Assembly (NCBI GenBank): GCA_964016885.1
Contig: OZ024749.1
Span: 38,812,001 to 38,876,000, forward strand
Length of the DNA: 64,000 nt
Source of the DNA: Eledone cirrhosa
Lineage: Eukaryota
Reading direction: 5' to 3'
Made by a program: the position numbers and the translations under genes
The notes under the pieces: generated by a model
Database searches by the model: none
What the model saw: only the letters and a program-made list of their open reading frames with translations
What the model was told of the DNA's origin: nothing
Shown here: positions 2,337-62,106 of the stretch, in pieces
How positions within the stretch are numbered: position 1 is the stretch's first letter
How the letters are laid out: each line of letters starts with the position of its first letter

Positions 2337-2494
2337 GGAAAATGTTTAACCTCGACGGCAGAGCTCAAGCCGTTTCGACTGCTTGAGCTCTGCCGTCGGG
2401 GTTAAACATTTTCCTATTACCCACTCTACTACCCTAAGTATTGAGTACTCTGGTGCGTTATGGTCCATCTGGTTCCTTACCACACTTCCTTCGT
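2337..2494 (+). mobile_element. palindrome-plus-tail element family A, copy 1 (centre deleted)
   Basis: self-complementary 2337-2414 followed by about 80 bp tail shared with other copies; TA flanks. Confidence 0.8.
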
Positions 2495-2495
2495 T

Positions 2496-2533
<38 letters not shown>

Positions 2534-2586
2534 TATTAATATATAAGGGAACAAAGAATCAGTGTTGCATCATTTAGATATTTAAT

Positions 2587-2680
2587 TACATATTACATAT
2601 GTTTCACTGTCGATCAGCTCGAAGAACAATCAATTAATGATCGATCCTGACTCTGAAATAGGAAGCTCCTCAGATATGTA
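2587..2680 (-). ncRNA. type I hammerhead ribozyme motif with long branched stem II, in a TA-flanked element (about 2545-2747)
   Basis: minus: UACAUAU-CUGAGGA-GCU...AGU-GAAA-CAUAUG-UA/AUAUGUA; 7-bp stem I, palindromic stem III, GUA site. Confidence 0.75.
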
Positions 2681-3443
2681 TTCACATGTAGACTCGCGCC
2701 TAAGAGTGGTTGGATAGTTAGTTATACCAATTGCACCTCTAATACCTATATATATATATATATAGTACTCACTGTAAATGAGGTTGGTGTTAGGAAGGGC
2801 ATCCAGCTGTAGAAATCAAACCAAAATCAGTTCCTGTATGAGCAAGACATGGTCACCTGACCTGGCATTGCTCACAACAGGGCAACCCATCTAACCCATT
2901 CTAGCGTGGAAGAATGGATGTAAAACGGTGATGATGATGATGATATATCATCATCATCATCATTTTACGTCCGCTTTTCCCTGCTTGTTATCTAACCTGA
3001 TTGTTTTTTCGTTGCTTTGGTATTATGTAGCTAGGCTCGCCTGCTGCAGTTTTCAGTTTGTCACGCTATCTAATGTATGTTATTACTCTAAGGTGACACA
3101 GCCTTATTGAGTGCTTTGCTGCACATTCTTAATTGTATATCGTTAGCTTAGCCACAGCCAAAACTTCGATTTTACTAAACTTCCATTTGTATATATATAT
3201 ATATATATATACTTGTATATAAGGAAAAGAGTACCTTTTATTTTTATTATATTCAACATTGACTGGATAACTGAATTAATTTTTCATTTTCAGCTATGTC
3301 CAAACACTGTTTCAACAGGAAATGCTTTCTGGGTCTTGTCATTATAAGCTGTAAATATTGATTTATATGATTTATATGATAACAAGATCTGGAAATTGAT
3401 TTACCTTGTCATAAAACTAGGCTGAAAAACTTTCTTTCGTGAA

Positions 3444-3474
<31 letters not shown>

Positions 3475-3515
3475 CGAAACATAAGTCAATTGCATGAACT
3501 CATAATCCTTTATTT

Positions 3516-3571
3516 ACTGCTATATATATTTCGATGATAGCCATTGAATGGCTATGACCTCATCAGGCAGT
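3516..3571 (-). ncRNA. type I minimal hammerhead ribozyme motif in a TA-flanked element (about 3471-3635)
   Basis: minus: ACUGC-CUGAUGA-GGUcAUAGCCAUucaAUGGCUAUcAUC-GAAA-UAUAUA-UA/GCAGU, then AAUAAA. Confidence 0.82.
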
Positions 3572-3634
3572 TAGTCAGTTCTTAGATATGCCAGCTCTGT
3601 GTGTATAGTGTTGATGATATCAGAGCCTTGGGAC

Positions 3635-3679
<45 letters not shown>

Positions 3680-3681
<2 letters not shown>

Positions 3682-3868
3682 AACAAGTAAGACCCCGACG
3701 GCTGAGCTCAAGCCGTTTTGACGGCTAATTCTGGACTGAATTAGCCGTCGAAACGGCTTGAGCTCAGCCGTCGGCGTCTTACTTGTTCCTATTACCCACT
3801 CTACTACCCTAAGTATTGAGTACTTTGGTGCGTTATGGTCCACCTGGTTCCTTACCACATTTCCTTCG

Positions 3869-3869
<1 letters not shown>
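3680..3869 (+). mobile_element. palindrome-plus-tail element family A, copy 2
   Basis: about 52-bp inverted arms around TGGACT (3732-3737), shared tail, inside (TA)n. Confidence 0.85.
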
Positions 3870-3910
<41 letters not shown>

Positions 3911-4055
3911 AAAGGCGGTGAATTGGCAGTTGTTAGAATGTCGGATAGAATGCTTTATGGTATTTGCTTCGGGGTTTCTGCCCTCTAAGGTCAACTTTGC
4001 TTTAAACGATGATGATATATATATACCTACATTTCACATCTGGTCTTGTCCTATT

Positions 4056-4830
4056 ACCACCTTTACTCAGGCCTACATTTTACAGCTGGTCTAATCTTAT
4101 TTCCACCTACATTTCACAGCTGGTCTAATCTTATTTCGACCTACATTTCACAGCTGGTCAATCCTATTTCCACCTTTACCCAGGCCTACATTTCACAGCT
4201 GGTCTGATCCTTTTTCCACCTTTATTCAGGCCTACATTTCACAGCTGATCTAATCCTATTTCCACCTTTACTCAGGCCTATATTTCACAGCTGATCTAAT
4301 CCTATTTCCGTCTTTACTCAGGCCTACATTTCACAGCTGGTCTGATCCTATTTCCACCTTTATTCAGGCCTACATTTCACAGCTGGTCTAATCCTATTTC
4401 CACCTTTAGTCAGGCTTACATTTCACAGCTGGTTTAATCCTATTTCCGTCTTTACTCAGGCCTACATTTCACAGCTGGTCTGATCCTATTTCCACCTTTA
4501 TTCAGGCCTACATTTCACAGCTGGTCTAATCCTATTTCCACCTTTAGTCAGGCCTATATTTCACAGCTGGTCTAATCCTATTTCCGTCTTTACTCAGGCC
4601 TACATTTCACAGCTGGTCTAATCCTATTTCCACCTTTACCCAGGCCTACATTTCACAGCTGATCTAATCCTATTTCCACCTTTAGTCAGGCTTACATTTC
4701 ACAGCTGGTTTAATCGTATCTCCACCTTTACCCAGGCCTACATTTCACAGCTGATCTAATCCTATTTCCACCTTTAGTCAGGCTTAGATTTCACAGCTGG
4801 TTTAATCGTATCTCCACCTTTAGTCAGGCT
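4056..4830. repeat. 46-bp minisatellite, about 16 units
   Basis: unit CAGGCCTACATTTCACAGCTGGTCTAATCCTATTTCCACCTTTACT, e.g. starts at 4181 and 4227. Confidence 0.95.
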
Positions 4831-4890
4831 TGCCTATGTCATGCATGTAGCCAATCAAATGGCTATCTTAATCCCCACACACATACATAC

Positions 4891-5326
4891 ACAAGCTACC
4901 TGCATCAGTTGTTAGCTGGCAAGACACTGCATCCTTTAAAACCTCCATGCTACCTAAAATTCACCAACACTACACCTGATATCCCCCCTCCATACACACA
5001 CACTCATGTATACCATGACTCATACACTATTCACTTTCCTGACATTTGAACATTATTTTAAGGGTGGGTTGGCAGTATCAGTAGAGGGTCAGACACCATG
5101 CTTAGTAGCATGGAGTTATGGCCCGTTACGGTCTGAGTTCAAATCCCGCTGAGGTTAACTTTGCCTTTCATTCTTTCGAGGTTGATAAAATAAAGCACCA
5201 GTAATGCACTGGGATAATTGCTGGCCTTGTGCAAAAAGTGGAAACAATTATTCTATGTACTATACATGCACCTTTGATGAGTTATAGTGCACCTGAGCAG
5301 TGCACACAATAATTTCATTATTATTA
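4891..5326 (+). mobile_element. CR1/L2-group LINE 3' end interrupted by a family 1 SINE (5062-5252)
   Basis: matches 22483-22720 on both sides of the SINE. Confidence 0.8.
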
Positions 5327-5867
5327 TCTTTATTATACACAGGTCTACTGGTTTATATATCACCACCACCATCATCATCATCATCATCATCATAATTTAA
5401 TTCTCACTGGCACCATGTCCTGTCCTAATAAATTTTTGTTTCAAATACTTAAATACACATTATTGCATTATTGTATACTAGCAGAAAAACCACTCTTTGG
5501 GTGGTTTTCTGCTAGCATGTGTAGTGTGTATATTGATATTATACACAAGTATATATGCATGTAGATATGATACATCAAATAAAATCGTAATTGACAATAT
5601 ACACAGAAATTGAACAAAGACTGTGTTACACTGTCTTATGTAATCAGTAACGTAATCCATGATACATTAAAAAAAAAGACGATATTATATATAAACTGCA
5701 TTAGGAGAAAATTGGTGACAGAAATATATGAATATTTATTTAAATGTTCACTAACTGGAACTGTTGACATTTGAAAATTTTAAAGAAGTGAATTTTTAAA
5801 TAAGAAATAAAATATATTTAATGAACAGCCACGAAATTTAGTGAATAAATTATGTAATATTCATTCT

Positions 5868-6013
5868 CTAGCATAGTTACGTCCCTTTACAGTCTGAGTT
5901 CAAATCCCGCCGAGGTTAACTTTGCCTTTCATCCTTACGGGGTCGATAAAATAAAGTACCAGTAATGTACTGGGTAATTGCTGGCCTTGTGCCTAAAGTA
6001 GAAACAATTATTT
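5868..6013 (+). mobile_element. SINE family 1, 5'-truncated
   Basis: GAGTTCAAATCCCGCCGAGGTTAACTTTGCCTTTCATCC...GTAGAAACAATTATT. Confidence 0.88.
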
Positions 6014-6131
6014 ATTCAAAGTAATCCAACTTATTTTACTAAGGGGATAAAAAATTATAAACTGTACGCAGTCCTGCACTTCTTACTTTATTATAGTTTA
6101 GATTTTAATGTTTGTTTACTTTCTCTTTTAG

Positions 6132-6166
6132 GAACTGACATTTTTCACCAGACAAGACATTTTAAA
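6132..6166 (+). CDS. CIB1: CIB1-like calcium and integrin-binding protein, first coding exon found (probably exon 2)
   Basis: ttttag|GAACTGACA...TTAAA|gtaagt, 35 bp, ELTFFTRQDIL(N); resembles CIB family DLTFLTKQEIL; phase 2 end matches next exon. Confidence 0.9.
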
Positions 6167-6204
6167 GTAAGTATTGTTTTTTTTGTTTTTTTTTGTTGTT
6201 ATTT

Positions 6205-6700
6205 ATTGGTGTTGGTGGTAGTGGTGGTGGTAGTGGTGGTAGTGGTGGTGGTGGTAGTGGTGCTGGTGCTTGTGTCAGTGGTGTTGTTGGTGGTGGTGCT
6301 TGTGTTAGTGGTGGTAGTGCTTGTGTCAATGGTGTTGGTGTTGGTGGGGCATGTGTTAGTGGTGACTGGCAGTGGGAGTAGCAGTTGTGCTGGTGGTGTT
6401 GGTATTGGTGGTGCTTGTGTTAGTGTGGGTAGCAGTTGTGGTGATATTGTTTTTGGTGGTGGTGGTGCTTGTGTTAGTGGTGTTGGTAGCAGTGGTAGTG
6501 GTGGTAGCAGTTGTGGTGGTGGTGCTTCTGTCAGTGGTGTTGGTGGTGGTAGGAGTTGTGGTGGTGCATGTGTCAGTGGTGTTGCTGGTGCATGTGTTAG
6601 TGGTGTTGGTGGTGGTGCGTGTGTTAGTGGTGGCAATGGTAGTAGTGGTAGCAGTTGTGGTGCATGTGTCAGTGGTAATGGTGGGAGTTGTGGTGGTGAC
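6205..6700. repeat. (GGT)-derived low-complexity repeat
   Basis: degenerate GGT/GTT/AGT triplets with recurring GGTGCTTGTGTTAGT. Confidence 0.9.
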
Positions 6701-6714
6701 ATTTATGATAATGA

Positions 6715-6908
6715 AATAATTGTTTCTACTTTTGGCACAAGGCCAGCAATTACCCAGTACATTACTGGTACCTTATTTTATCGACCCCGTAAGGATGAAA
6801 GGCAAAGTTAACCTTGGCGGGATTTGAACTCAGAATGGCAAGGGTCATAACTCTATGAATCAAAGCATGGTGTTCGACCCTCTACCGATACTGCCAATCC
6901 ACCGCCCT
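6715..6908 (-). mobile_element. SINE family 1, full length
   Basis: reverse complement of GGCGGTGGATTGGCAGTATCGGTAGAG...GTAGAAACAATTATT. Confidence 0.9.
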
Positions 6909-7253
6909 TTTGATAATGCAATAATATTCATCAGTCATTCAAGCCACAACAATATTTGAAACATTTAGTAAGAACAATAGGCTGGTAATAACCAGCCTAT
7001 TGTTCTTTACTAAATGTGGTAAATATTTTCATGAAGGACATGTGAGAATTTACATACATCATCAGCAGGTGTCTTTTCCTAATTAGTGTTGCTATAAAGA
7101 TACTTTTCAATTAACATTGATGTCTAATTATAAACTAATTGTAAAATAAAATAAAACCCCCAAAAAATCCTTGATCTAATTTCCATTGTTCTAATATACA
7201 GCTATATACAGCAACTTAAACTTTCTTCTTGTTGAACTTTATATACTCTCAGG

Positions 7254-7880
7254 TAGAGGCGTCACTTGGGTATAGGCAAACATGGCTCGTGCCATGGGTG
7301 ACACTCGAAGCGGGGCACCACTTGAACTAGGAGCTATCATCAGTATGATCTCATCATCATCATCATCATTTTACGTCCGCTTTTCCCTGCTTGTTGGTAT
7401 TGGTGGTGCTTGTGTTAGTGTGGGTAGCAGTTGTGGTGGTGGTAGTGGAGGTGGTAGCGGGAACTGATTCTGGCTTGATTTCTACAGCTGGATGCCCTTC
7501 CTAACACCAACCTCATTTACAGTGTGGGCTGGGTGCTTTTTTGCCGTGGCACCTCCACGACCACTCTGCAGTGGAATGATAGGAACCCAGTCCCTATCAT
7601 CTCATTTCTACAGCTGAGTAAACTGGAGAAATGTGAAATAAAGTGTCTTGCTCAAGGAAACAACACATCACCCGGTCTGAGAATTGAACTCACAACCTTT
7701 CGATTGCAAGCCAATGCTCTAAGCACTAAGCCAAGTGCCTCCACATTTTGATTATCATGGGTGGCTGGAACACTAAACTATTTCTATGAATTATTAGGTC
7801 CATAGGTAAAAATACAGTGCTGGTCAGGGGTGCAATTTCACAGCTTGCCACAGGCAATATTTTCCCTAGTTACACCTCTG
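7254..7880. mobile_element. hAT-like non-autonomous DNA transposon containing a family 2 SINE (7350-7743, minus strand)
   Basis: imperfect TIRs TAGAGGCGTCACTTGGG / CCCTAGTTACACCTCTG; 8-bp TSD CTCTCAGG (7246-7253) and CTCTCAGA (7881-7888). Confidence 0.65.
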
Positions 7881-8227
7881 CTCTCAGATCTCAAATAATA
7901 GGGGTGGTGGAATAAGCAAGGGTTGGAAAATCGATAATTTTTCTAGGTTGTCTTTGTTGATCTTTTTAAAAACTAGAATTAGTCGGTTAGTTTACATATT
8001 GAGACCCCAAACCATCCTATTTATTTTATAATGTATAGGATTTCTTGTAATGTATGTTTTTTAATGTGTTAAGAAAATTGTCGCAGGAATGCTACCAGTT
8101 AAAATAAAATTTCGCCAGAGATAGATAATCAAGATTTAATAAGTAGAAAAAAATCTGTGGAAAAAATAAGTGAAAAAATCTGAAAAATTAATAAACAGGG
8201 AGGGGATGATTATTTGAGACCCAAGAA

Positions 8228-8293
<66 letters not shown>

Positions 8294-8377
8294 AGTGAAC
8301 TCTGTATACACAGGTGGATTGCATATATTCACAGCAATTTAAACATTCTTGTTGTTGGACTATATATACACTGTAAC

Positions 8378-8412
<35 letters not shown>

Positions 8413-8596
8413 AATATTAATAAATATAGACATTCATGTGATCAAATATATTTTATTATACATATTTCAGAGATACTGAGCTATTTCAACAGTACGTCCT
8501 TGTCAGATAAAATAACTCCAGAAAACCTTCTTGTAGAGTGCTTATAATCTATTGTGAAACTTTATTCATTGATGAATTCATTGAACCTTGTTAAAC

Positions 8597-8651
<55 letters not shown>

Positions 8652-9289
8652 TTGACTGTATATACAGCATTCTAAACAATCTTGTTGGATTATATGTATA
8701 CACAGGTGGAATCACTATATATACACAGCAACTTAAACATTCTTGCTGTTGGATTACATGTATATATACACACACAGGTGGACTCTATATATATACAGCA
8801 CTCTAAACATTCTTGTTAGTGTTGGATTATATGTATACACAGGCATACTATATATACACACCAACTTAACATCCTTATTGTTTGATATACACAGGAGGAT
8901 TATATAAAAAGCAACCTAAATATCCTGTTGTTGGGCTAAAGCTATAAATAACACTCTTTCTTTAATAAAATAACTTTCTCTAACAACTTTGGATATTAAT
9001 TCAGCCTTTATGGCTGCTATTATCTCACTGGCTACATATCTATGTATAATACACAGGTCACTTAGTATAAAACATGTTCATTGTCACCATCATCATCATC
9101 ATCATTTTATGGCTGCTGTTCATGTTAGAATGAGGTGGACAGGTTTTCACTGTCCAAGTTTAGCTGGACAGGAGAGAGCTTATCTTACATATCTTCCATA
9201 TTTGAATAAGATAGTCATATGTATTGATCTCATTTATACTTTCCTACTTTACCATGCTAGAAGGGCCTTTTACAAGTTACCAGAGTAAA

Positions 9290-13555: not shown

Positions 13556-14150
13556 TTTTTATATATTTTTCAGCAGTTCAATCGAGTAGTAGAGAGGTAT
13601 ATAGTCATAGTGAAGTGAAATTACCCAGAAACATGTTGGCTGTTCCTCGATGCTACTGTTGAACAAACAGATGATGATAGTGATCAAAAACAAGACATAG
13701 CTAAATGAAGCTGTTTGCTTGCAAACAAATTGAATGTTATTATTATTACTATTAAATATAACCCATATTTACATCATCATCATCATCGTTTAATGTTTAT
13801 CTTCCACGCTAGCATGGGTTAAACGAGAGTTGTCCCACTTGAGGCAAGATTGGTCGGGTGACCGTGTCTCGCTCATATAGGACTATCTGGCATGTTTTCT
13901 ACGGCTCGATGTCCTTCCTAACACCAACCACATTTACAGTGTGGACTGGGAACTTTTTACTGTGTTACCTACACGGTCACATTACAGTGTGGACTGTGTA
14001 TTTTGTTTTGTTGTGACACCTATACGATCTCATTAGTTTGGACTGGATGTTGTGGTATGTTAGAGCCAAAAATCAAATTCTAATTTTGTTTTGATATATA
14101 TTCCATTGATAAATTGCTCTACCAGTCCTAGCTGTGTAAATTCTCAGGAG

Positions 14151-14235
14151 GTTTCTGAAGAATTGCACTTGGCTTAGTTCTGCATACCACTCTCCAGGTA
14201 TGGAGTGTAGTAATGAAACCACGTGGTCCAGGGAC
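14151..14235 (+). ncRNA. degenerate hammerhead motif, sense to the CIB intron
   Basis: CTGAAGA 14155-14161, ATTGC/GTAAT stem II base, GAAA-CCACGTGG-TC with palindromic stem III; the predicted stem I overlaps the core. Confidence 0.5.
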
Positions 14236-14414
14236 GTTAATTAATTGTGTTCCTACACAACACCTTTTGTATCACTAACTAATTGTGTGCAACTCGTCTA
14301 ACCCATGCTAGCATGAACTGGACGTTAAACTGTGATGATGATAATGATGATATTTAACGCCACTAAGGTTAACTATAGTCTACTTTTTGTGGACTACATG
14401 TTTGTATGTATAAT

Positions 14415-14760
14415 GGAAGCACATGGCTTAGTGGTTAGCGCATTGGCCTTGCAATCGAAAGGTTGTGAGTTCAATTCTCAGACCGGGTGATGTGTTGTTT
14501 CCTTGAGCAAGAAACTTTATTTCACATTGCTCCAGTTTATTCAGCTGTAGAAATGAGATGATAGGGACTGGGGTCCCTATCATTCCACTGCAAAGTGGTC
14601 ATGGAGGTGCCACGACAAAAAAGCACCCAGCACTCACTGTAAATGAGGTTGGTGTTAGGAAGGGCATCCAGCTGTAGAAATCAAGCCAGCATCAGTTCCC
14701 GTCCCACCCTTGCAAGCAGGGAAAAAGCGGACGTAAAATGAAATGAAAATGAATGAAATG
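14415..14760 (+). mobile_element. SINE family 2, full length
   Basis: near-identical to 652-990. Confidence 0.9.
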
Positions 14761-18829: not shown

Positions 18830-18961
18830 GAATTAGCCGTCGAAACGGCTTGAGCTCAGCTGTCTGGGTCTTACTGGTTCCTATTACCCACTCTACTACC
18901 TCAAGTATCGAGTACTTTGGTGCGTTATGGTCCACCTGGTTCCTTACCACATTTCCTTCGT
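18830..18961 (+). mobile_element. family A copy 3, single arm plus tail
   Basis: starts at GAATTAGCCGTCGAAAC, just after the loop position of the palindromic copies. Confidence 0.8.
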
Positions 18962-19026
<65 letters not shown>

Positions 19027-19040
19027 ACCTGTTTTCAAAG

Positions 19041-19131
19041 TCCAGCAGTTGCAAGAGCAGGAGGGATCATCCTGATGAGAACTAGTTCAGTTCGAAATGC
19101 ATCGGCGATTGTCCCCCTTGCTACTGTTGGA
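19041..19131 (+). ncRNA. type I minimal hammerhead ribozyme motif on an extended stem I
   Basis: CTGATGA 19072-19078, GAACT/AGTTC stem II, GAAA 19094-19097, palindromic ATGCAT stem III, AUC site (C19103); TCCAGCAGTTGCAAG pairs with CTTGCTACTGTTGGA. Confidence 0.75.
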
Positions 19132-20303
19132 TACCGCCAGGTGGTGATAGCTGCCGGTGTTTTTGCATAGCTACAGTTTTCTAAATGTTTATTTATAAAC
19201 ATACAGTATTTCTTTAGAAATAGGAAATACCAATACATACAGAGTACCCGACCTCCCATGGGTACAAGCTGAAGCATATAGACAATATGCCCCCAAACCC
19301 CCTACTGCAAGGTGGTTGTGGAGGTGCCACGGCAAAAAAGCACCCAGCCCACACTGTAAAGTGGATGTGTAGGCGCCACGAAAAAGCACCCAGCACTCAC
19401 TGTAAATGAGGTTGGTGTTAGGAAGGGCATCCAGCTGTAGAAATCAAGCCAAATCAGTTCCTGTATGATTAAGGCATGGTTAGCCGACCAGACACTGCCC
19501 ACAACAGGACAACTCGTCTAACCCATGCTAGCGTGGAAGAACGGACGTAAAACAGTGATGATGATGATATCTGTGTACAGCTATGCTCGAAGCTAAATTC
19601 TGATTATATATTTATATATATATATAAAATATAATACACTTAGTCTACTCTGCAAAGTGGTAGTGCTGGTGTCACAAAGGAACCCAGCCAGTACACTCTG
19701 TAGGGGGATTGCTATTAAGAAAGGCATCAAGCCATAGTAACCATACAAATCTGGAATGTACAAACAAGATGAGGTTGTTTTGATCTGTTTAGCCTCAGAC
19801 TCTGACAATATTTTAGTGCAGTTCTGGATTAAAACTTGGTGAGGCGCTAAGCTATAGAAACATTAGAGGCACCTTATTTAAAAAATTATAGCAGAAGATC
19901 TCACAAAAATTGAAAACATATAGACCTTTCAATTATCTATGAGCCCTAAGTTGTTTTATAGTGATGATTTATTCAAAAGTTTCTTCTCTTGCTTTTAAAT
20001 GAAAAAACTAAAATCTATTTTATAAGTTGTGAAATATCTAATAAATTGGTTTCCAATCAATGTTGTTGTATATTGTTATTATGTCATCAAAATGCCTTGC
20101 AGTATTTAATCCTGTATTTTTAAGTTCAGAGCTCAAACCTAGATAAAAATTGCTTTTCATCCTTTAAGGATCAATAAAAAAAAAAAAATAAATAAAATAA
20201 AAGAAACTTTGAGTGAAATACTGGAACAATTTTACATCTCTGAATATATTTACATCAGTTTTGTATGATACAACTGGAGTGGTCTCAAGTGGTATGGTAT
20301 TAA

Positions 20304-20920
20304 CCCTTTAGCATTTATATTACTTTATACTTACTACTGTATTTTCACGGTAAAGGCTTTACCCCACATAATTATCTCACACAGTATCGAATCTATGAGA
20401 TTTTTATATTATTTATTTTGAGAGGAATACTTTAACGTCAATATGAGTGGCTGGGTACAGCTGGTTTGAACAGAAAGAGGTGAGAGAATTCTAGCCAAAT
20501 ACAGCTAGTTTGAACAGAAAGAGGTGAGAGAATTCTGGCCAAATACAGCTGGTTTGAACAGAAAGAGGTGAGAGAATTCTGGCCAAATACAGCTGGTTTG
20601 AACAGAAAGAGGTGAGAGAATTCTAGCCAAATACAGCTAGTTTGAACAGAAAGAGGTGAGAGAATTCTGGCCAAATACAGCTGGTTTGAACAGAAAGAGG
20701 TGAGAGAATTCTGGCCAAATACAGCTGGTTTGAACAGAAAGAGGTGAGAGAATTCTGGCCAGATACAGCTGGTTTGAACAGAAAGAGGTGAGAGAATTCT
20801 GGCCAAATACAGCTGGTTTGAACAGAAAGAGGTGAGAGAATTCTGGCCAAATACAGCTGGTTTGAACAGAAAGAGGTGAGAGAATTCTGGCCAAATACAG
20901 CTGGTTTAAATGCTAAAGGG
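20304..20920. mobile_element. piggyBac-like MITE with internal 44-bp minisatellite (about 20456-20907)
   Basis: TTAA|CCCTTTAGCATTTA...TAAATGCTAAAGGG|TTAA; about 10 units of TACAGCTGGTTTGAACAGAAAGAGGTGAGAGAATTCTGGCCAAA. Confidence 0.85.
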
Positions 20921-24460: not shown

Positions 24461-24942
24461 TGAATTGGTTCTTCCCTTTTTCTCACACACACACACACTT
24501 TCTTTCTGTAGGAAATTAACTGAGGTCAGCTGTGGAGAGAGATTTGCTCTGCCAGACTTCAATAGCTGAGACAAGTGACAGAAATTATCATCATCATCAT
24601 TTAATGTCTGTTTTCCCTGTTAGCAATGGTTTGACATATGATGACATAAATTGAAAATAACTTACAAGCTTGTTTTTGACTCAAAAAGGGCTTTGTTTGG
24701 AATAGGAAGTTGAAAATATTGAACAGGATAAATAGCTCCTGTTTTATTGTAGTAGCTCCTGTGGATTTGACCAGACTGCAAACAGAAAATAGTGCAACTT
24801 AACTATAATGATATATATATAGAGAGTAATAATATATGTGAAGACTAAAATCCAAAGAGGGTATGATAAGGATTTTATATATATATAGTGAAAAATTGAA
24901 CGGGAACAAAACAGAGAAGCAGTACGAACAAAGGTTTATTAA

Positions 24943-25012
24943 TTTCACGCTCTTGAGAGTGGGGTGCTGGTGGGGAGCGACGTTTCGGGCATAAGCCCTT
25001 CTTCAGGTGAAA
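24943..25012 (-). ncRNA. Penelope-type minimal hammerhead motif in a TA-flanked element (about 24888-25152)
   Basis: minus: UUUCAC-CUGAAGA-A-GGGC uuau GCCC-GAAACGUC; stem I partner GUGAAA is displaced by a GCUC...GAGC hairpin; AAUAAA follows. Confidence 0.65.
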
Positions 25013-25238
25013 AGTGTGTGGGAAGAGAGTTCAAAGGGTGTGTAGGGGAGTGGTGGAGAGACATATAGCAAAAAGGGGGTGAGAGGAAACGGTGCAAATG
25101 AAATTAAAAATAAAGGCATGATCAAAATAAAATTAAAATGGGGTAAAACAGGTATATATATATAATTGGTGTTGGATGCTTAAAGCGTCCATATGCGGTA
25201 GGCTGTATGAGCACTTGATGCTCTCAGAGCAGAGTATG

Positions 25239-25462
25239 ATATCACAGAAAAAAAGAAAATCAGTGTTGCGACGAATGGAATTTATTGGACATATTACAAT
25301 CGTTTCTTTGGCGACCAGCTCGAGGCACGATCGATTTGATGATCAGAGTCAAGTTCGATCATAAAATCGATCGTGCCTCGAGCTGGTCGCCAGAGAAATG
25401 ATTGTAATATGTCCAATAAATTCCATTCGTCGCGACACTGATTCTCTTTTTTTCTGTGATAT
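25239..25462. mobile_element. long palindrome, inverted derivative of the 2545-2747 hammerhead element
   Basis: about 105-bp arms, 12-nt spacer 25345-25356; spacer plus right arm align to the minus strand of 2555-2655. Confidence 0.8.
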
Positions 25463-25651
25463 ATATATATAAACCCGTAGAGCAAATATTTATTATAAGT
25501 ACAGATTAAAGTTTAAGCAAAGAATCGCTGCTGTCACCCTTTACAGGATCTTCTGAAACTGAGAAAAATCAATCTGTGGACGCAGAAGTAAATATTTCAA
25601 CAAATGTTACAACTGAAGGAAAACAACACACACACACACACACATATAGTA

Positions 25652-25990
25652 GGAGGCACATGGCTTAGTGGTTAGAGCATTGGCCTTGCAATCGAAAGGT
25701 TGTGAGTTCAATTCTCAGACCGGGTGATGTGTTGTTTCCTTGAGCAAGACACTTTATATCACATTGCTCCAGTTTACTCAGCTGTAGAAATGAGATGATA
25801 GGGGCTGGTGTCCATATCATTCCACTGCAAAGTGGTCGTGTAGGTGCCACGGCAAAAAAGCACCCACCACTCACTGTAAATGAGGTTGGTGTTAGGAGGG
25901 GCATCCAGCTGTAGAAATCAAGCCAGAATCAGTTCCCGTCCCACCCTTGCAAGCAGGGAGAAGTGGACGTAAAATGAAATGATGATGATA
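25652..25990 (+). mobile_element. SINE family 2, full length
   Basis: near-identical to 652-990. Confidence 0.9.
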
Positions 25991-34719: not shown

Positions 34720-35400
34720 TACATATACATGGTTGTGTGCAAGCTACATGTATGTGTGTATGTACATGTTTTTGTGCAAGCTACATGTATGTGTGTATAT
34801 ACATGGTTGTGTGCAAGCTACATGTATGTGTGTATATACATGGTTGTGTGCAAGCTACATGTATGTGTGTATGTACATGTTTTTGTGCAAGCTACATGTA
34901 TGTGTGTACGTACATGTTTTTGTGCAAGCTACATGTATGTGTGTATATACATGTTTTTGTGCAAGCTACATGTATGTGTGTATATACATGTTTTTGTGCA
35001 AGATACATGTATGTGTGTATGTACATGTTTTTGTGCAAGATACATGTATGTGTGTATATACATGTTTTTGTGCAAGCTACATGTATGTGTGTATATACAT
35101 GGTTGTGTGCAAGCTACATGTATGTGTGTATATACATGGTTGTGTGCAAGCTACATGTATGTGTGTATATACATGTTTTTGTGCAAGATACATGTATGTG
35201 TGTATATACATGTTTTTGTGCAAGCTACATGTATGTGTGTATATACATGTTTTTGTGCAAGCTACATGTATGTGTGTATATACATGTTTTTGTGCAAGCT
35301 ACATGTATGTGTGTATATACATGTTTTTGTGCAAGATACATGTATGTGTGTATATACATGTTTTTGTGCAAGATACGTGTATGTGTGTATATGTTTGTAT
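34720..35400. repeat. 37-bp minisatellite
   Basis: unit GTGCAAGCTACATGTATGTGTGTATATACATGTTTTT, starts at 34922 and 34959. Confidence 0.95.
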
Positions 35401-35564
35401 GCCAGGTACATATATGTGTGTATATACATGTTAGTTTTAGTTCACAATGTATCTATCTCCCCATTCTAGACTTCATTTAAAGGAAGGGCTGGTTTTAAGA
35501 ATTTGGAATTTCAAAACAATATACTTTTGGCTTCACAACTAAAAACTATATATAATATATATAT

Positions 35565-35932: not shown

Positions 35933-36645
35933 TCCTTTTACTGGTTTCAGTCATTATACAAAGGCCATGCTGTAGCACCACATTCTTTTACTGGTTTCAG
36001 TCATTATACAAAGGCCATGCTGTAGCACCACATTCTTTTACTGGTTTCAGACATTATACAAAGGCCATGCTGTGGCACCACATTCTTTTACTGGTTTCAG
36101 TCATTATACAAAGGCCATGCTGTGGCACCACATTCTTTTACTGGTTTCAGTCATTATACAAAGGCCATGCTGTGGCACCACATTCTTTTACTGGTTTCGG
36201 TCATTATACAAAGGCCATGCTGTGGCACCACATTCTTTTACTGGTTTCGGTCATTATACAAAGGCCATGCTGTGGCACCACATTCTTTTACTGGTTTCGG
36301 TCATTATACAAAGGCCATGCTGTGGCACCACATTCTTTTACTGGTTTCGGTCATTATACAAAGGCCATGCTGTGGCACCACATTCTTTTACTGGTTTCGG
36401 TCATTATACAAAGGCCATGCTGTGGCACCACATTCTTTTACTGGTTTCGGTCATTATACAAAGGCCATGCTGTGGCACCACATTCTTTTACTGGTTTCAG
36501 TCATTATACAAAGGCCATGCTGTGGCACCACATTCTTTTACTGGTTTCGGTCATTATACAAAGGCCATGCTGTGGCACCACATTCTTTTACTGGTTTCAG
36601 TCATTATACAAAGGCCATGCTGTAGCACCACATTCTTTTACTGGT
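35933..36645. repeat. 50-bp minisatellite, about 14 units
   Basis: unit TTCTTTTACTGGTTTCAGTCATTATACAAAGGCCATGCTGTGGCACCACA. Confidence 0.96.
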
Positions 36646-52307: not shown

Positions 52308-52499
52308 GGAACGAGTAGGACCCCGATGGCTGAGCTCAAGCCGTTTCGACGGCTAATTCTGGACTCAGAATTAGCCGTCGAAACGGCTTGAGCTCAGCCG
52401 TCGGGGTCCTACTCGTTCCTATTATCCACTCTACTACCCTAAGTATTGAGTACTTTGGTGCGTTATGGTCCACCTGGTTCCTTACCACATTTCCTTCGT
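52308..52499 (+). mobile_element. family A copy 5
   Basis: inverted arms around AATTCTG-GACT-CAGAATT plus shared tail; TA flanks. Confidence 0.85.
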
Positions 52500-54544: not shown

Positions 54545-55660
54545 ACTCTGTGTGTATCTGGTTTACACTAGATACACAGTATTCCTGTGTGTATCTGGTT
54601 TTGTATACGTACACCAGAGAATAGTTAAACCGTATTACTGCGTATATCTGGTTTACAATAGGTAAACTGTATCACTGCATATATCTGGTTTAGTATAGGT
54701 ACACTGTATCCCTGTGTATATCTGGTTTAGTATAGGTAAACTGTATCACTGCATATATCTGGTTTAGTATAGGTACACTGTATCCCTGTGTATATCTGGT
54801 TTAGTATAACTACACTGTATCCCTGTGTATATCTGGTTTAGTATAGCTACACTGTATCCCTGTGTATATCTGGTTTAGTATAGCTACACTGTATCCCTGT
54901 GTATATCTGGTTTAGTATAGCTACACTGTATCCCTGTGTATATATGGTTTAGTATAACTACACTGTATCCCTGTGTATATCTGGTTTAGTATAACTACAC
55001 TGTATCCCTGTGTATATCTGGTTTACAATAGGTAAACTGTATCACTGTGTATATCTGGTTTACAATAGGTAAACTGTATCACTGTGTATATCTGGTTTAG
55101 TATAGGTACACTGTATCCCTGTGTATATCTGGTTTAGTATAGGTAAACTGTATCCCTGTGTATATCTGGTTTAGTATAGGTACACTGTATCACTGTGTAT
55201 ATCTGGTTTACAATAGGTACACTGTATCCCTGTGTATATCTGGTTTAGTATAGGTACACTATATCCCTGTGTATATCTGGTTTAGTATAGCTACACTGTA
55301 TCCCTGTGTATATCTGGTTTAGTATAGCTACACTGTATCCCTGTGTATATATGGTTTAGTATAGGTACACTGTATCCCTGTGTATATCTGGTTTACAATA
55401 GGTAAACTGTATCCCTGTGTATATCTGGTTTACAATAGGTACACTGTATCCCTGTGTATATCTGGTTTACAATATGTACACTGTATCCCTGTGTATATCT
55501 GGTTCACAATAGGTAAACTGTATCCCTGTGTATATCTGGTTTACAATAGGTACACTGTATCCCTGTGTATATCTGGTTTACAATAGGTAAACTGTATCAC
55601 TGCGTTTATCTGGTTTACAATAGATAGACTGTATGTCTGTGTATTTCTGGTTTAGAATAG
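54545..55660. repeat. 37-bp minisatellite
   Basis: unit CTGTATCCCTGTGTATATCTGGTTTAGTATAGGTACA, starts at 55111 and 55148; a decayed relative lies at about 45085-45400. Confidence 0.95.
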
Positions 55661-55919
55661 TGGAAATAGCCTTAAAATAATTGTTGTGGGGTATTTTGTA
55701 TTGTAAGAGAAATGATATGTTATGATGTTAATCCTTCTCCAAACATGACTTCAGAAAATCAAAATAGCTTCTGCTGAGGAAATCAACTCACCAGAAGCTT
55801 GCCTTCTATTCTCACAATAAATATTGATATTTCACATTGGCACAGGGCGGCCTTGATTTAACTGGGGTGGTGTATAGTTAGTCAGGATCACTGTCTGAAA
55901 TATGCAGACGATGATGATG

Positions 55920-56537
55920 ATGGTCAGTCATGATAGTGATGGTGGTGGTAGTGGTGGCAATATATATGATGATGATGGTAACGGTAGTCATTTATATGAT
56001 AGTGGTGGCGGTGGTAGTGGGTGTCATGTATTTGATAGTGATGATGGTAATAGTGGTCATAGATATGATGGTGGTGGTGGTGGTGGTGGTAATAGTGGTC
56101 ATAGATATCATGGTGGTGGTGGTGGTGATGGTAATAGTGGTCATAGATATGATGGTGGTGGTGATGGTAATAGTGGTCATAGATATGATGGTGGTGGTGA
56201 TGGTAATAGTGGTCATAGATATGATGGTGGTGGTGGTGGTAATAGTGGTCATAGATATGATGGTGGTGGTGGTGGTAATAGTGGTCATAGATATCATGGT
56301 GGTGGTGGTGGTGGTGGTAATAGTGGTCATAGATATGATGGTGGTGGTGGTGGTAATAGTGGTCATAGATATGATGGTGGTGGTGATGATGGTAATAGTG
56401 GTCATAGATATGATGGTGGTGGTGGTGGTGGTGGTGGTGGTGATGGTAATAGTGGTCATAGATATGATGGTGGTGGTGATGGTAATAGTGGTCATAGATA
56501 TGATGGTGGTGGTGGTGGTCATAGACATGATGATGAT
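55920..56537. repeat. compound minisatellite GGTAATAGTGGTCATAGATATGAT(GGT)n
   Basis: direct reading. Confidence 0.92.
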
Positions 56538-58519
56538 TGTATATTTTTTTTATGAATAGAAATTATGGATGTAAATTGATTTAGCCGAGTTAATATAAAG
56601 ATTGCGTTATGTTCAATACCATCATCTGAGCTGCTGTGGTTGATGGCATCATTTTCTGTAGTGTAGAAGATATGGTAATGATTTTTCAGGGTTGAAACAA
56701 TCTAAGGCAGATTAACTGGTTTTATCCAGCTGTCTCCAGCATCAATTATCTTCTTCGAGGATACAATGATCACATCACCTTGGTGATCCAGACTTTCACT
56801 TTAATGATCAATATTTTAAATTGGCTCCTTATTATTTCAATATGTGTCCCGTTTGACATTTGCTTCAGGTTAATTTATCAATCTATAATAGTATTAATAT
56901 CAATAAAGAAGCGCAAGTTATGGCTGTGTGGTTAAAGACGTTCACTTTGTGGGTGTCTTGTGGTACCAGCACTAGAGAGCTTGTTACATACATCCCCACT
57001 ATCTACGTCTTTGTACAATTGATAATGACTTTACAGAGTGTATTGGGTGTATTTTATTGTGGTACCAGCACCAGAGAGCTTGTTTCATCCTCATTATCTT
57101 CAATGTTAATAACTTTACAGAGTGTATTGGGTGTATTTTATTGTGGTACCAGCACTAGAGAGTTTGTTACATCCTCACTATCTACAATGCCTCTATACAA
57201 TTGATAATGACTTTACAGAGTGTATTAGGTGTATTTTATTGTAGTACCAGCACTGAAGAGGTTGCCTTGGAACTCACAAGACTTTAGGGTTGTCACACTA
57301 TCCTAAATTATCTCAGTTTATTCAAAGCACTGTGATCTTGAGAGTATATAAAAGAAATTAAAGGAAAAAGGTCAACAAAGAAAAGTAAAATATATATATA
57401 TATATCGCCCACTTTATCCTTTTTGTTGTGAAACACCTGAAACAGCCTTTGATTCTATGATACAAAACTGTATCTTTAAATGTTTATGCATGCATGACCC
57501 AGCGACACCTGAGGGAGTTATAAGGGCGCTGTATTAGGGCATTTTTAAATCTGGTGGAGCCCATCCCGCTCCAGGTCTGAATGCAGCAAATTTCTTTCAG
57601 AGAAAGATAGAAAGTGATAGAATTGAAGTGAGAAAGAGATATAGAGGAAGAATCAACCCCTTTACTTGGCTGGTACTTTTTTTATCAACCTCGAATGGAT
57701 GAAAGGCAAAGTTGACTTCGGTGGGATTTGAACTCAGACATCAGAGAGCCAAAACAGATAATGCAAAGCATTCTATCCAATGTTCTAATGACTCTGCCAA
57801 TCAGTCGCCTATTTAAATGTTTATATTTACCTAAAAATCTTCCATTATAATTTTATTTAAGAACCTTTGTTAAGTTATGTTCCAAACACCATCTTGATAA
57901 TATGAAAGTTAGATATATTACTAAATCCTTCCAAATTCTGGATTATTAAAAAAGTATTTGATAATTATAGACAGTGCCTTTCTTTAGAAATATCGTAGCA
58001 AAAGGGTTAAATTTTCCTTACAAAGGTCCACTATAAATTCAAATGGTTGTCCCTATAAAAGTAAATCTTTAATAATTGTGTTATACCATAATATTATTAA
58101 TATTTCATCAATAACCTTCGCCCTTATTGATTTATAAAAACAAAAACAAAGCAAACTTGCTTTTTTTTTGTTGTTGTTATTTTGCTTTTTTGTTGTTGTT
58201 TTTTTTTGCTTTTTTTTGTAATTTTGTTTATTAAAAAGAAACATCCAATATTTCATATGATGATGATATGGTGATATGTCTATAAATTTATCTTAGGTTG
58301 TCGTTTTGGACTCATTGCCAAATAAATACAACTAACTCTTTAACTTAAACGTCAATAAGTCTTAACATCAGCTTTCAGGCAGGTCTTCTTTTTTTTCATT
58401 TTCAGTTTGAAGTTGGTTTGCTCTGATTGATGGCTGTATGGCATACTGGTATATATATAGTAATTGTTTCTACTTTTGGCACAAGGCCAGCAATTACCCA
58501 GTGCATTACTGGTACTTAG

Positions 58520-58735
58520 TAATAATAATAAATTTGAAGACTAAAATACAAAGAGGGCTCAATAAGGATAAATATATATCAAATATATAAGAACCGTAGA
58601 GCAAATATTTATTAAAATAACAGATTAAAGTTTAAGCAAAGAATCGCTGCTTTCACCCTTAACGGGATCTTCTGAAACTAACATATCAATCTGTGAACGC
58701 AAAAGTAAATATTTCAAAAAACGTTGCAACTGGAT
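58520..58735 (-). mobile_element. TA-associated element with a hammerhead-like relic; a second, split copy lies at 24826-24880 plus 25471-25615
   Basis: shared GAAGACTAAAAT.CAAAGAGGG and CCGTAGAGCAAATATTTATT...AAGAATCGCTGC blocks. Confidence 0.65.
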
Positions 58736-58738
58736 ATA

Positions 58739-58784
<46 letters not shown>

Positions 58785-59167
58785 AGATAGGGTGTGGTAA
58801 AAAGCAGCTAGTAGAGTGGGTAATATGAATCTTTTCATATATATATATAAGATTAGTGGGGGTTGTATGTGATATTGGGATATATGTAAATGTGGTTGGT
58901 GTTAGGAAGGGCATCCAGCTGTAGAAAACCCGCCAGACAGTCCTATGCGAGCAAGACAACCACTCTTGCCTCAAGTGGGGAAAACTCCCGTCTAAACCCA
59001 TGCAAGCGTGGAATATGGACGTTAAACGATGATGATGATGATGATATATATATATATACATACACATATGTATATTAGATGGGGCGTGGTGTTTGTGGCA
59101 AACTGAGATATCACTATTAGTTTTGGGAGAGTGGGTCTTATGGCATATTGGGTACATATATATATAT

Positions 59168-59710
59168 CAGATTGAAGGAAGATGCAGTAGAGGAAGACCA
59201 CAAAAATCATGGGCGGAGGTGGTGAGAGCAGACCTCAGATCACTGACGCTTACAGTGGAGATGACAAAGGACCGTGACAAGTGGAGAGATGTTGTGCTGA
59301 ATAGGACCCATCCCACCCTTGCAAGCAGGGAAAAGCGGACGTAAAATGATGATGATGATATATATATATATATGGAGGCACATAGCTTAGTGGTTAGAGC
59401 CTTGCAATCGAAAGGTTGTGAGTTCAATTCTCAGACCGAGTGATGTGTTGTTTCCTTGAGCAAGACACTTTATTTCACATTGCTTCAGTTTACTCAGCTG
59501 TAGAAATGAGATGATAGGGACTGGGGTCCATATCATTCCACTGAAAAGTGGTCGTGCAGGTGCCACGGCAAAAAAGCACCCAGCAACCACTGTAAATGAG
59601 GTTGGTGTTAGGAAGGGCATCCAGCTGTAGAAATCAAGCCAGAATCAGTTCCCGTTCCACCCTTGCAAGCAGGGAAAAAGCGGACGTAAAATGAAATGAT
59701 GATGATGATG
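59168..59710 (+). mobile_element. RTE LINE 3' end (59168-59360) followed by SINE family 2 (59373-59710)
   Basis: GRPQKSWAEVV motif; both end in the same CCCTTGCAAGCAGGGAAAAGCGGACGTAAAA(TGA)n tail. Confidence 0.88.
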
Positions 59711-59828
59711 ATATATATATATATATATATGCAATTGATAATTGAGAGAAAAGAGTACTCAATACCAAAGTAGAGTTTGGCAAATCACCAGAATGGCAAG
59801 ACTCACTATGCAGCTGTAATAAAATGAA

Positions 59829-60212
59829 TCATCATCATCATCATCACCATTTTACGTCCGTTCTTCCACGCTAGCATGGGTTAGATGGGTTGTCCTATTG
59901 TAGGCAGTGTCCGGTCAGCTGACCTTGTCTTGCTCATACGGGAACTGATTCTGGCTTGATTTCTACAGCTGGATGCCCTTCCTAACACCAACCTCATTTA
60001 CAGTGAGTGCTGGGTGCTTTTTTGCCATGGTACCTCCACGACCACTTTGCAGACCCCAGTGCTATCATCTCATTTCTACAGCTGAGTAAACTGGAGCAAT
60101 GTGAAATAAAGTGTCTTGCTCAAGGAAACAACACATCACCCGGTCCGAGAATTGAACTCACAACCTTTCGATTGCAAGGCCAATGCTCTAACCACTAAGC
60201 CATGCGCCTTCA
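59829..60212 (-). mobile_element. SINE family 2 variant with an alternative tail
   Basis: same tRNA head and core; tail matches 19440-19568. Confidence 0.8.
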
Positions 60213-61045
60213 CATATACATATTTTACTGGGGGTATGTTTCTCTAGTTTTTCTGATCTTTATATTTCATTGAGTTCTCCAGTAGAAATCTGGCTATCAA
60301 ATATATAGACTGCTGTATCTTAGTAATTCTCTCCCTGGGCCCTTTCCATCCCACCTTCCATCCCACCCACCACATGAGAAACAGTCATAAGCACTGTGCT
60401 CTTCGCTCCTTCCCTCACACCAGTTTCTGAGGCCCTGAAAAGCTGTCATAAGGTCTGTCCCTCCCACCTTCACCAGACAGTAAAAAACAAGAACAACTTC
60501 ATCATTTCCAGCCTTGTCACCAATACTAACAACTAGGTTGATATCTCCGCCCTACCCATCCACTCACCCACACCTCTTTTGTCAGGCCTGTGTTAGATAA
60601 ATTATTGTTTCTACTATTGGCACAAGGCCAGCAATTACTCAGTGTATTACTGGTACTTTATTTTATCGACCCCGTAAGGATGAAAGGTAAAGTTAACCTC
60701 GGCAGGATTTAAATTATGTTTACTTGATATGTTTGTGATAAATAGTTTACAACTATTTCACTGATCAACAGATAAACTTCTCCTCTCCATCCCTCCAAAC
60801 CACCACCGCCACCACATTTATTACGTTGTATGGTACTAAATACTTGCTGTGCCTTGTACCATTTCCCCTATGGTTCTGCTGCTGATTGATTCAATACATT
60901 TTATTCTCTATATTTCCTTCTATCTTCTCACATAATAGAGAGGTGACACAAGTTTACATAGCATCTCAACTCAATATTTTACCACCAACCCACTCACTCT
61001 CTCCCACGCTCATTCACTCCCATCCTCTGTGTGTACATGTGATTC

Positions 61046-61101
<56 letters not shown>

Positions 61102-61104
<3 letters not shown>

Positions 61105-61660
61105 GGGTTAGACAAAATAATGGAAACACCAAGCATTGTAGCATCATAATTTTGAAATATCTATAAAACGGTCAAAAGCTTTTTTATTTTTATTGTTCTT
61201 GAGGTGGACATTAAACTCTGCAGTAATTTTGGGAGCTGTACTTTTGTGATCCTTTCTAACAATTCGCGTAAGAGTCCGACGGTCCCTATCTGAAAGTTTT
61301 GGTTTTCTTCTGGAGTTTTGTTTTGACGAGGAGGTTTTTCCCTCTTTCTTAAAGGCTATCATTACTTTTGAGACAGTACTTCTTGATACACCAAACATTT
61401 CGGCTGTTTTCGTTACGCTAGCGCCTGCCATACAAACACCAACAATTTGACCTCTTTGAAAGTCCGATAGATTTTTCATTTTAATGAATTTTAATTACCT
61501 TTTTCTGATGATATCTGAAAAGAAACAGCAATTTTAACAAAACATATTAAGCAACACTAATAATAAATAAAAAAAATAAACACGCTTTTGACGGTTTTAT
61601 AGATATTTCAAAATTATGTTGCTATGATGCTAGGTGTTCCATTATTTTGTCCAACCCTTG
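61102..61660 (-). mobile_element. Tc1/mariner internal-deletion derivative
   Basis: TA|CAGGGGTTAGACAAAATAATGGAAACACC...GGTGTTCCATTATTTTGTCCAACCCTTG|TA with about 90-bp TIRs; ORF 61144-61479 LSDFQRGQIVG...GVSRSTVSKV is the Tc1 paired-like HTH region; no DDE domain. Confidence 0.92.
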
Positions 61661-61891
61661 TATATATGTATGTGTGTATATATATGAGTATATATGTGTA
61701 TATAGATGTTATTCACCTGACTTCATTATTGATCTGCACTTTAGATTGGTGATTAACAAGAAATACAGTGTTTTTCTTAATATATGCACTCTGCCTGTAC
61801 ATTGAGTGCTCATTTTGGTACCACCACCACCAGTAATTCACTGAATCACATACACCACATATATACATATATGTATATATCTATGTATATA

Positions 61892-61929
<38 letters not shown>

Positions 61930-62106
61930 ATAAGGAGGGTGTGGTAAGATATCAGGTGGACCATAATGCATCAGAGTACTCGATACTTAGGGTAGTAGAG
62001 TGGGTAATAGGAAAAAAGTCAAGACCCCGACAGCTGAACTCCGGCCGTTTCAACACCTAGATCCGAAATGGCTGGAGTTCAGCCGTCGGGGCCCTGACGC
62101 TTTTCC
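61930..62106 (-). mobile_element. family A copy 6, diverged subfamily
   Basis: tail on left, imperfect arms around AACACCTAGATCC. Confidence 0.78.

Follow-up and report, generated by a model that had tools for sequence, protein, structure and literature searches.

Hammerhead motifs likely marking Penelope-like elements in TA repeats of Eledone cirrhosa, and a proposed two-site priming origin of family A hairpins

This analysis concerns short hammerhead ribozyme-bearing elements in a 64,000-nucleotide (nt) stretch of the Eledone cirrhosa genome (assembly GCA_964016885.1, contig OZ024749.1, positions 38,812,001 to 38,876,000, forward strand), from here on referred to as the window. The window consists of AT-rich DNA rich in microsatellites and short interspersed nuclear elements (SINEs), whose tails appear to be of an octopod kind, and the source genome measures 3.0 Gb. 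Five hammerhead motif sites define families labelled B, C, D, E and F; A and G denote further elements. Judged from sequence, the hammerhead motifs found here likely mark, for the most part, 5'-truncated ends of several Penelope-like elements (PLEs) located in TA repeats. Self-comparison identified six copies of family A between positions 2337 and 62106, five of which are hairpins between TA runs:

2337..2494, plus strand: family A copy, a hairpin (2334-2417) joined inside stem III, with an 80-nt tail ending at TA
3680..3869, plus strand: family A hairpin, arms 3680-3789 and tail 3790-3869, TA runs on both sides, hammerhead 3' half only
18830..18961, plus strand: lone family A arm with tail, beginning 13 nt upstream of GAAA
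28752..28941, minus strand: family A hairpin with tail
52308..52499, plus strand: family A hairpin with tail
61932..62106, minus strand: family A hairpin with tail, older subfamily

The five hammerhead families and element G are found at the following positions:

2537..2746, minus strand: family B copy, type I hammerhead 2587-2680, core 2673, stem III CATATG, 7-bp stem I, predicted cut after 2594, 3' end at TA
3470..3639, minus strand: family C copy, hammerhead 3516-3571, core 3566, stem III TATATA, AAUAAA directly after stem I
14107..14275, plus strand: family D copy, old, 70-85% identical to relatives, stem III CCACGTGG; GAAA-palindrome-GUC half conserved, CUGAAGA core at 14155 specific to this copy
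19022..19240, plus strand: family E partial unit, type I hammerhead 19063-19112, core 19072, stem III TGCA, repeat unit 329-342 nt
24888..25152, minus strand: family F copy, minimal hammerhead, core 25006, stem III CG, stem I 1-2 bp
25165..25462, minus strand: element G, related to B, hairpin 25239-25462 with 106-bp arms and a tail on one arm (25165-25238)

The five CUGANGA...GAAA...NUH motifs of the original prediction (2587, 3516, 14151, 19041 and 24943) were all found in place (5/5). A relaxed type I descriptor with palindromic stem III matched the window five times compared with a mean of 0.095 (maximum 1) in 200 block-wise dinucleotide shuffles, a rate clearly not equal to that of shuffled sequence, and a strict hammerhead descriptor gave three matches compared with none in the 200 shuffles. 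A similar descriptor also allowing UUGANAA was applied to a genome sample of 40 stretches of 10 kb at round coordinates (399,800 bases), resulting in 28 matches spanning a dozen or more sequence types, compared with 1.2 (maximum 4) in 30 shuffles. Because of these two excesses, the genome is considered rich in such hammerhead motifs. An Rfam scan at E<=1 matched no hammerhead model and returned microsatellite-driven microRNA models and transfer RNA (tRNA)-like SINE heads.

Genome searches yielded 2239 candidates for B, 765 for C, 2320 for E, 2698 for F and 61 for D, of which 40 per family were scored and the best loci picked by similarity to the window copy. Core and GAAA are both kept in 22/30 of these loci for B, 25/25 for C, 13/25 for E and 20/20 for F, so the predicted multi-copy conservation of the core stands for four families but fails for D (1/20). 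A TA run is present within ~17 nt of the 3' end in 13/30 B, 23/25 C, 20/20 F, 8/25 E and 0/17 D loci, the background being 8.5%. In the window, four motifs had been claimed to lie in or beside TA runs; this is true for B, C, E and F, the run of E being located at its 5' side and representing the 3' flank of a family A arm. Different PLE families share TA runs in three places (A and B at 2494-2537, C and A at 3639-3680, A and E at 18961-19022), and each PLE insertion in a TA run appears to leave a target for the next. The very short stem III described earlier applies to B, C, E and F but not to D (5 bp) or A (~7 bp), and direct succession by AAUAAA, claimed for two elements, holds for C and not for F, where AAUAAA lies ~38 nt past the cleavage site. 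The window copies are indeed non-coding, with tblastn returning no match within the window, but upstream of the hammerhead end both family C and family F continue into a PLE open reading frame (ORF).

The original prediction bracketed family A without describing its U3-A8 core, its long stem III or the fact that the window copies retain only the 3' half of the hammerhead. These copies contain GAAA, a palindromic stem III, GUC and the 3' strand of stem I, and lack CUGANGA. Longer copies in the round-coordinate sample carry the core 63 nt upstream, where it reads YUGANAA; a half-ribozyme without a 5' core acting in trans was thus ruled out. Genome-wide, the whole YUGANRA hammerhead pattern of A has 6,142 exact matches compared with 0 for the control, and the CUGANGA pattern returns 58 heterogeneous, unrelated matches. 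Counted by eye, the first 100 of the 6,142 comprise 77 U3-A8, 21 C3.A8, 2 U3.G8 and no C3-G8 hammerheads; N7 can be any of the four bases and position 8 is A in 98/100. U3-A8 is a PLE hammerhead variant described in the available text of PMC4209133. A natural whole A copy folds as a three-way junction as a monomer, with a stem III of ~7 bp, and is predicted to self-cleave, possibly in this monomeric form. The C3.A8 mismatch characterizes a young subfamily (21/100 of the first whole-hammerhead copies). If cleavage gave rise to the short products, this subfamily should be enriched among long copies; it accounts for 4/29 of these compared with 9/45 and 2/37 in other types. Based on this subfamily, full ribozyme activity may be dispensable for the spread of family A.

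Longer A copies continue into reverse transcriptase (RT) and GIY-YIG sequence. One locus (L319) encodes an intact 719-aa ORF in the order inverted arm, partial tandem, repeat, ORF, repeat. By motif reading, it is a single ORF with a C-terminal GIY-YIG domain containing FDIESYY, YRDD and VIYQC...YIG, RWR at 37, DKT at 117, CNCPDRSIC (CxCX5C), CNLC (CxxC) and CKH (CxH), with no second cysteine pair in the GIY core and no CCHH. Pfam and PDB searches of this ORF gave no significant match; 2054 of 8000 scored proteins match it. Because these motifs agree with the features given in section 11 of PMC8557442, family A is assigned by motifs as the 3' end of a young Hydra-clade PLE; an initial classification as Poseidon-type was replaced on the basis of the same clade features. 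A core 15-mer of A identifies at least 77,682 exact arms genome-wide compared with 1 for the control, and at least 11,055 hairpins are joined near stem II compared with 0. Four-unit head-to-tail arrays of the whole element with 3.53-3.54 kb units are located at G000:C1:91.476-91.488 Mb (L409-L412) and C1:437.20 Mb; units of the first array are more than 99.8% identical, and the family is therefore young. Family A is also strongly associated with (TA)n: a TA run follows the 3' end in 29/30 loci compared with the 8.5% background, and in the arm sample described below TA follows 75/80 untailed and 55/64 tailed ends. No empty site was present in Logan contigs of four sequencing runs, the kind of run not being on record. 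A decayed piece of a family A-like tail is located between TA runs at window positions 58783-58837.

To describe the hairpins, arms were sampled at the places of the first 100 core 15-mer matches, in the 40 round-coordinate stretches, in 100 kb beside the window and in the window itself. The 144 sampled arms comprise 131 from the main subfamily group and 13 older-subfamily arms, the latter being left out of the end histogram. Arm 5' ends are concentrated at a boundary referred to as the wall: of 131 arms, 108 reach no further than 24 nt upstream of GAAA, 3 stop at 25-55 nt and 20 extend for 56 nt or more. Short arms are ~5x commoner than long ones, and unpaired arms also start at the wall. Its position falls at TYAGTC, a motif we take to be initiator-like. 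In each of the 44 close inverted pairs, a tail is present on one arm only; the other arm shows a clean short end in 39 and is unclear in 5. The 80-nt tail is sequence running on towards the ORF (391 exact copies), and both arm 3' ends meet the target at a TAT also present in the element. Within pairs, mismatches amount to 1.73 per 39 nt compared with 5.73 in permuted pairs (minimum 4.59 in 2000), 35/44 of the arm differences in the first 25 nt are transitions and 13/44 pairs are identical; the two arms thus share a source and subsequently mutated apart. A diagnostic A/T site agrees between the arms of the first 50 hairpins (29 and 21, none mixed, by eye), which subfamilies active at different times would also explain. 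Recombinants between upstream and downstream A types were not decisive. Junctions in 41 hairpins are blunt in 18 cases, show microhomology in 13 and contain inserts in 10.

On balance, we favor two-site priming as the origin of these structures: both nicked strands of the TA target would separately prime reverse transcription at two RNA sites 80 nt apart, both complementary DNAs (cDNAs) would run off the RNA 5' end inside stem II of the hammerhead, and end-joining of the two cDNAs head to head would create the hairpin junction. The RNA 5' end would correspond to the wall and probably represents a transcription start within TYAGTC, and the two priming events probably take place on one RNA or on RNAs of one subfamily. 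Priming within tandem read-through RNA or within the 3' repeat would account for long copies. The wall is tied to the RNA 5' region by the loci in which a tail runs on into the ORF: 5 out of 30 (4 places) start at the wall, 13-21 nt upstream of GAAA, and run for another 139-950 nt before ending in TA. The remaining loci extend at least 60 nt upstream (17), start within 3 nt of GAAA (3) or have no recognisable core (5). An extra G precedes AGTCCAG in 0/62 full copies compared with 7/28 truncated arms unexplained by their partner. Separate priming also fits work on a PLE protein, predicted to be a dimer, which in vitro cuts both target strands, extends each of them and initiates at two sites within the RNA that delimit the tail, according to the available portion of PMC11167929.

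Two-site priming could be right with the wall being an RT stall at stem II or a nuclease cut instead of a transcription start, a reading we regard as somewhat doubtful. The wall does coincide with the upper end of stem II on its 3' strand, beside an A/U-rich loop, and both its spread over ~10 nt and the weakness of the extra-G signal suit a stall or cut. However, arms passing the wall rarely stop in the next 150 nt, with only 8/23 ending before the 200-nt limit, and in locus L398 a second piece starts right at TTTAGTCC after ORF sequence, as a template-end jump would give. Further, the Penelope element of Drosophila virilis possesses an internal TATA-less promoter (PMC2377424, as far as the accessible text describes it).

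An alternative cycle, which we consider unlikely, would have the family A PLE replicate via retrovirus-like strong-stop cDNAs. Here, capped RNA would start in stem II, and self-cleavage in the 3' repeat would remove both priming sites from the RNA 3' end and leave a 41-nt terminal redundancy. A dimeric enzyme would prime both target strands near the RNA 5' end, and the cDNA would either jump to the 3' end via the redundancy, yielding a long copy, or fail to do so and join its twin, yielding a hairpin. If true, this cycle would give the PLE hammerhead a function and would explain tails, inverted repeats and partial tandems together.

Self-priming, proposed for head-to-head PLE repeats in PMC3846280 (available text), would involve a single cDNA or antisense RNA that folds back, is copied into the inverted arm and joins the other target end at the internal TAT. 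It accounts for one tailed arm per pair, for arms of the same subfamily and for the palindrome itself, and the microhomology at 13/41 junctions agrees with it. It is nonetheless improbable, given that it derives the untailed arm by copying the tailed strand. In 41 hairpins, the untailed arm is longer by more than 3 nt in 10, just as often as the tailed arm (10), and the two are similar in 21; in four kilobase-scale pairs (L266, L318, L323 and L326) the untailed arm is longer by 0.8-2 kb. Because a fold-back copy of the tailed strand cannot exceed its template, the arms were most likely primed separately. Lone untailed long arms and the inserts at 10/41 junctions also speak against self-priming.

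It is quite improbable that the short A hairpins are a self-propagating non-autonomous element, SINE-like or similar to a miniature inverted-repeat transposable element, with its own internal promoter and copied as a unit. The excess of short arms and the fact that each arm would start at its own start site agree with such a unit, as does the earlier idea of a non-autonomous partner. The junction, however, varies from copy to copy, meaning that the hairpin is made anew and not inherited, short arms share sequence types with full copies, and some carry 5' ORF-side sequence; re-transcription of single arms may occur. Chance matching of the motifs in an AT-rich, repeat-rich genome is hardly credible: it does describe the D core and is in line with the nearly absent stem I of F and the Rfam result, but the excess over shuffles in the window and in 400 kb, the retention of core and GAAA in B, C, E and F and the free variation of N7 next to a near-invariant A8 in family A already refute it for A, B, C, E and F as sequence motifs, their activity being predicted.

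Several points weigh against two-site priming with run-off at an RNA 5' end. The position of this end would be read from arm ends in DNA, and the wall is spread over ~10 nt (mostly 12-22 nt) instead of marking a single base. Among the 30 tail-into-ORF loci, no long coding copy begins exactly at the wall. The hint of a cap is weak as 17/28 of the truncated arms in question carry a natural T. Most of the arm sample lies in the first 10.8 Mb of a single chromosome, and sampling required an exact 15-mer. Covariation in the stems of A is not apparent in 30 rows (92.9% paired compared with 92.3% in shuffled rows, 3 compensatory cells), one of which, L343, is not a true whole hammerhead. Post-insertion asymmetric deletions could shorten the tailed arm. 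In the accessible part of PMC11167929, no difference in start site between the strands was seen in vitro, whereas A pairs are strictly asymmetric. Lastly, copies of B, C and F mostly keep the whole hammerhead, although loci were partly selected for it, so the wall is not obviously general, and no ORF link was found for family B.

The original prediction saw the five motif-bearing elements as remnants or non-autonomous partners of diverse PLEs targeting TA repeats. Extension in the 5' direction supports the former for C and F, as it does for A, by linking them to ORF sequence. Family C is read as the 3' end of a young Hydra-like PLE: ~1.1 kb upstream, one locus (L161/L084) contains an endonuclease with a CxCX5C linker, a link backed by an inverted arm in L083 and by an 85% relative (L275). 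Only the endonuclease was recovered in the linked loci and not the RT part. At L062:1250-1670, a family A-like tail appears to be fused to 3' sequence of family C, a chimera that suggests template switching between families. Family F is preceded by a ~1.4 kb C/A-rich 3' untranslated region (UTR) and, further upstream, by RT and endonuclease fragments. In locus L151, these contain DKG, CSRPRCNTC, VYGLRCTEC and RFTEH, with a weak match to RVT_1 (E 9.5e-6). DKG, a CX2-5CxxC linker and cysteines inside the GIY core, the marks of the Neptune clade, are thus all present, and family F appears to be the 3' end of a young Neptune-type PLE, its clade being assigned by motifs and not by a tree. No intact ORF is present among nine extended loci, and stem I is restricted to 1-2 bp both in the window copy and in the 14 of 20 relatives shown.

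The notion of a non-autonomous partner fits family E, interpreted from sequence as a non-coding, tandem, retrozyme-like unit. Same-strand E units are 342, 329, 259/273 and 657 nt apart in four places among 25 loci, which groups E with the non-coding tandem repeats whose units measure 150-450 nt and each carry a type I hammerhead. One natural E unit folded as a circle gave a z-score of -4.1, and no ORF was found upstream. Copies are mostly monomers or partial dimers, ~90% identical, with an intact core in 15/25 loci. Families B and G may fit the same notion. Family B (2587) is classed by its sequence organization as having PLE architecture, and B and G both form inverted pairs with a tail on one arm, with element G holding only the 3' half of the hammerhead. 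A link of B/G to an RT/GIY-YIG ORF was not found, common upstream sequence extending ~560 nt. An apparent link of B to an ORF in L033 was ruled out since this ORF has its own hammerhead and TA run at its end and belongs to another family; a 410-nt tandem unit of B was likewise ruled out, as the second copies are inverted. The hammerheads of B, C and E are predicted to self-cleave as dimers via their palindromic stem III, which in the folded dimers pairs between strands, an arrangement described for PLE hammerheads in the available text of PMC4209133.

Family D supports neither part of the original prediction. The CUGAAGA core is present in 1/20 loci, the window copy itself, 8/20 loci are unaligned over the core, and a conserved CUGANGA or UUGANAA core is thus absent; GAAA is present in 20/20. 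Stem I is not closed at the core, stem III has 5 bp and 0/17 ends abut TA.

Further hammerhead families, at least eight in number, are present in the round-coordinate sample (L196, L212, L217, L223, L225, L227, L230-L232 and L234). Several of them have UUGANAA cores and several form inverted pairs kilobases apart; L196 contains a 725-codon Hydra-like ORF. Other repeats of the window include tRNA-headed SINE copies:

645-944, 14408-14707, 25645-25944, 59361-59660 and 60062-60227 of the window: tRNA-headed SINE copies, with Rfam tRNA matches at 661, 25661 and 60145

At least two more SINE-like families are frequent in the window. Young minisatellite arrays with periods of 37-50, some derived from SINEs or other repeats, are found at 4072-4829, 20456-20907, 34723-35432, 35935-36645 and 54638-55660. 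A 320-codon open frame at 973-1932 on the plus strand presumably resembles the C-terminal part of an RTE-type long interspersed nuclear element (LINE), and a 347-codon open frame outside the window (L154:4891-5931, plus strand) is one we take to resemble a Tc1/mariner transposase.

A single family here combines an intact ORF with tens of thousands of young copies, a pair of fixed sites for priming and a sharply placed 5' stop. PLE models thereby become countable and bench-testable in this genome, and self-priming, two-site priming and strong-stop transfer make distinct predictions here. The formation of tandem and inverted structures, the microsatellite bias and the function of the hammerhead are named as open questions in the accessible text of PMC8557442. 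The most abundant family escapes hammerhead searches built on a CUGANGA core and a short stem II (58 unrelated matches compared with 6,142), and the more than 11,000 near-perfect hairpins are a putative source of double-stranded RNA.

The element classes themselves are already known: the portions of the literature available cover PLE hammerheads, TA targeting and inverted repeats tailed on one side, as well as animal retrozymes and both the Hydra and the Neptune clade. An octopus repeat annotation lists Penelope-like families, hammerheads being absent from its main text as far as accessible (PMC13282606). In the literature searched, with Repbase/Dfam and subscription papers outside that search, no description of PLE twin priming or of PLE strong-stop products was found, and the families may already be catalogued. 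Two things appear to be new. One is a Hydra-clade family that is very abundant and whose hammerhead combines U3-A8 with a long stem III; the other is a quantitative pattern in which the tail is strictly asymmetric, the two arms vary independently in length and the 5' stop falls within the ribozyme.

In LINE-1 twin priming, both target strands prime reverse transcription, yielding an inversion. Family A would likewise have both strands priming reverse transcription with inversion as a result, but differs in that both cDNAs would copy the same RNA stretch, giving a palindrome, and in its two fixed start sites. Family F resembles the Neptune clade in DKG, a CX4CxxC linker, cysteines in the GIY core, a C-terminal endonuclease, TA targeting and a minimal hammerhead, and departs from it in the long C/A-rich 3' UTR, the stem I of only 1-2 bp and the lack of an intact ORF in nine loci. 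Like the non-LTR (long terminal repeat) retrozymes described in the available parts of PMC7229834 and bioRxiv 10.64898/2026.07.22.740005, family E is a non-coding head-to-tail unit with a type I hammerhead; it differs in being mostly monomers or partial dimers of ~90% identity, with its core often degraded. Compared with the inverted pseudo-LTR (pLTR) plus tail structure of PLEs (PMC3846280, PMC8557442 and PMC11167929, accessible text), family A shares a head-to-head inverted copy and a tail at one end continuing towards the ORF. Its tail, however, measures 80 nt instead of the published 30-40, most of its insertions are ORF-free hairpins stopping at one place in the hammerhead, and the symmetry of its arm lengths favours two priming events over the published self-priming. 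With the Hydra clade as presented in the available text of Craig et al. 2021 (PMC8557442), family A shares a single ORF with a C-terminal GIY-YIG domain, RW[KR], DKT, CxCX5C, CxxC and CxH, the lack of CCHH, (TA)n insertion and a hammerhead in the repeat, and family C shares the CxCX5C linker. The A unit of ~3.1-3.5 kb exceeds the 'generally <3 kb' given there, its hammerhead combines U3-A8 with a 63-nt stem II region and a ~7-bp stem III in place of a canonical core, and its arms, numbering at least 77,682 here, contrast with the few further families reported there.

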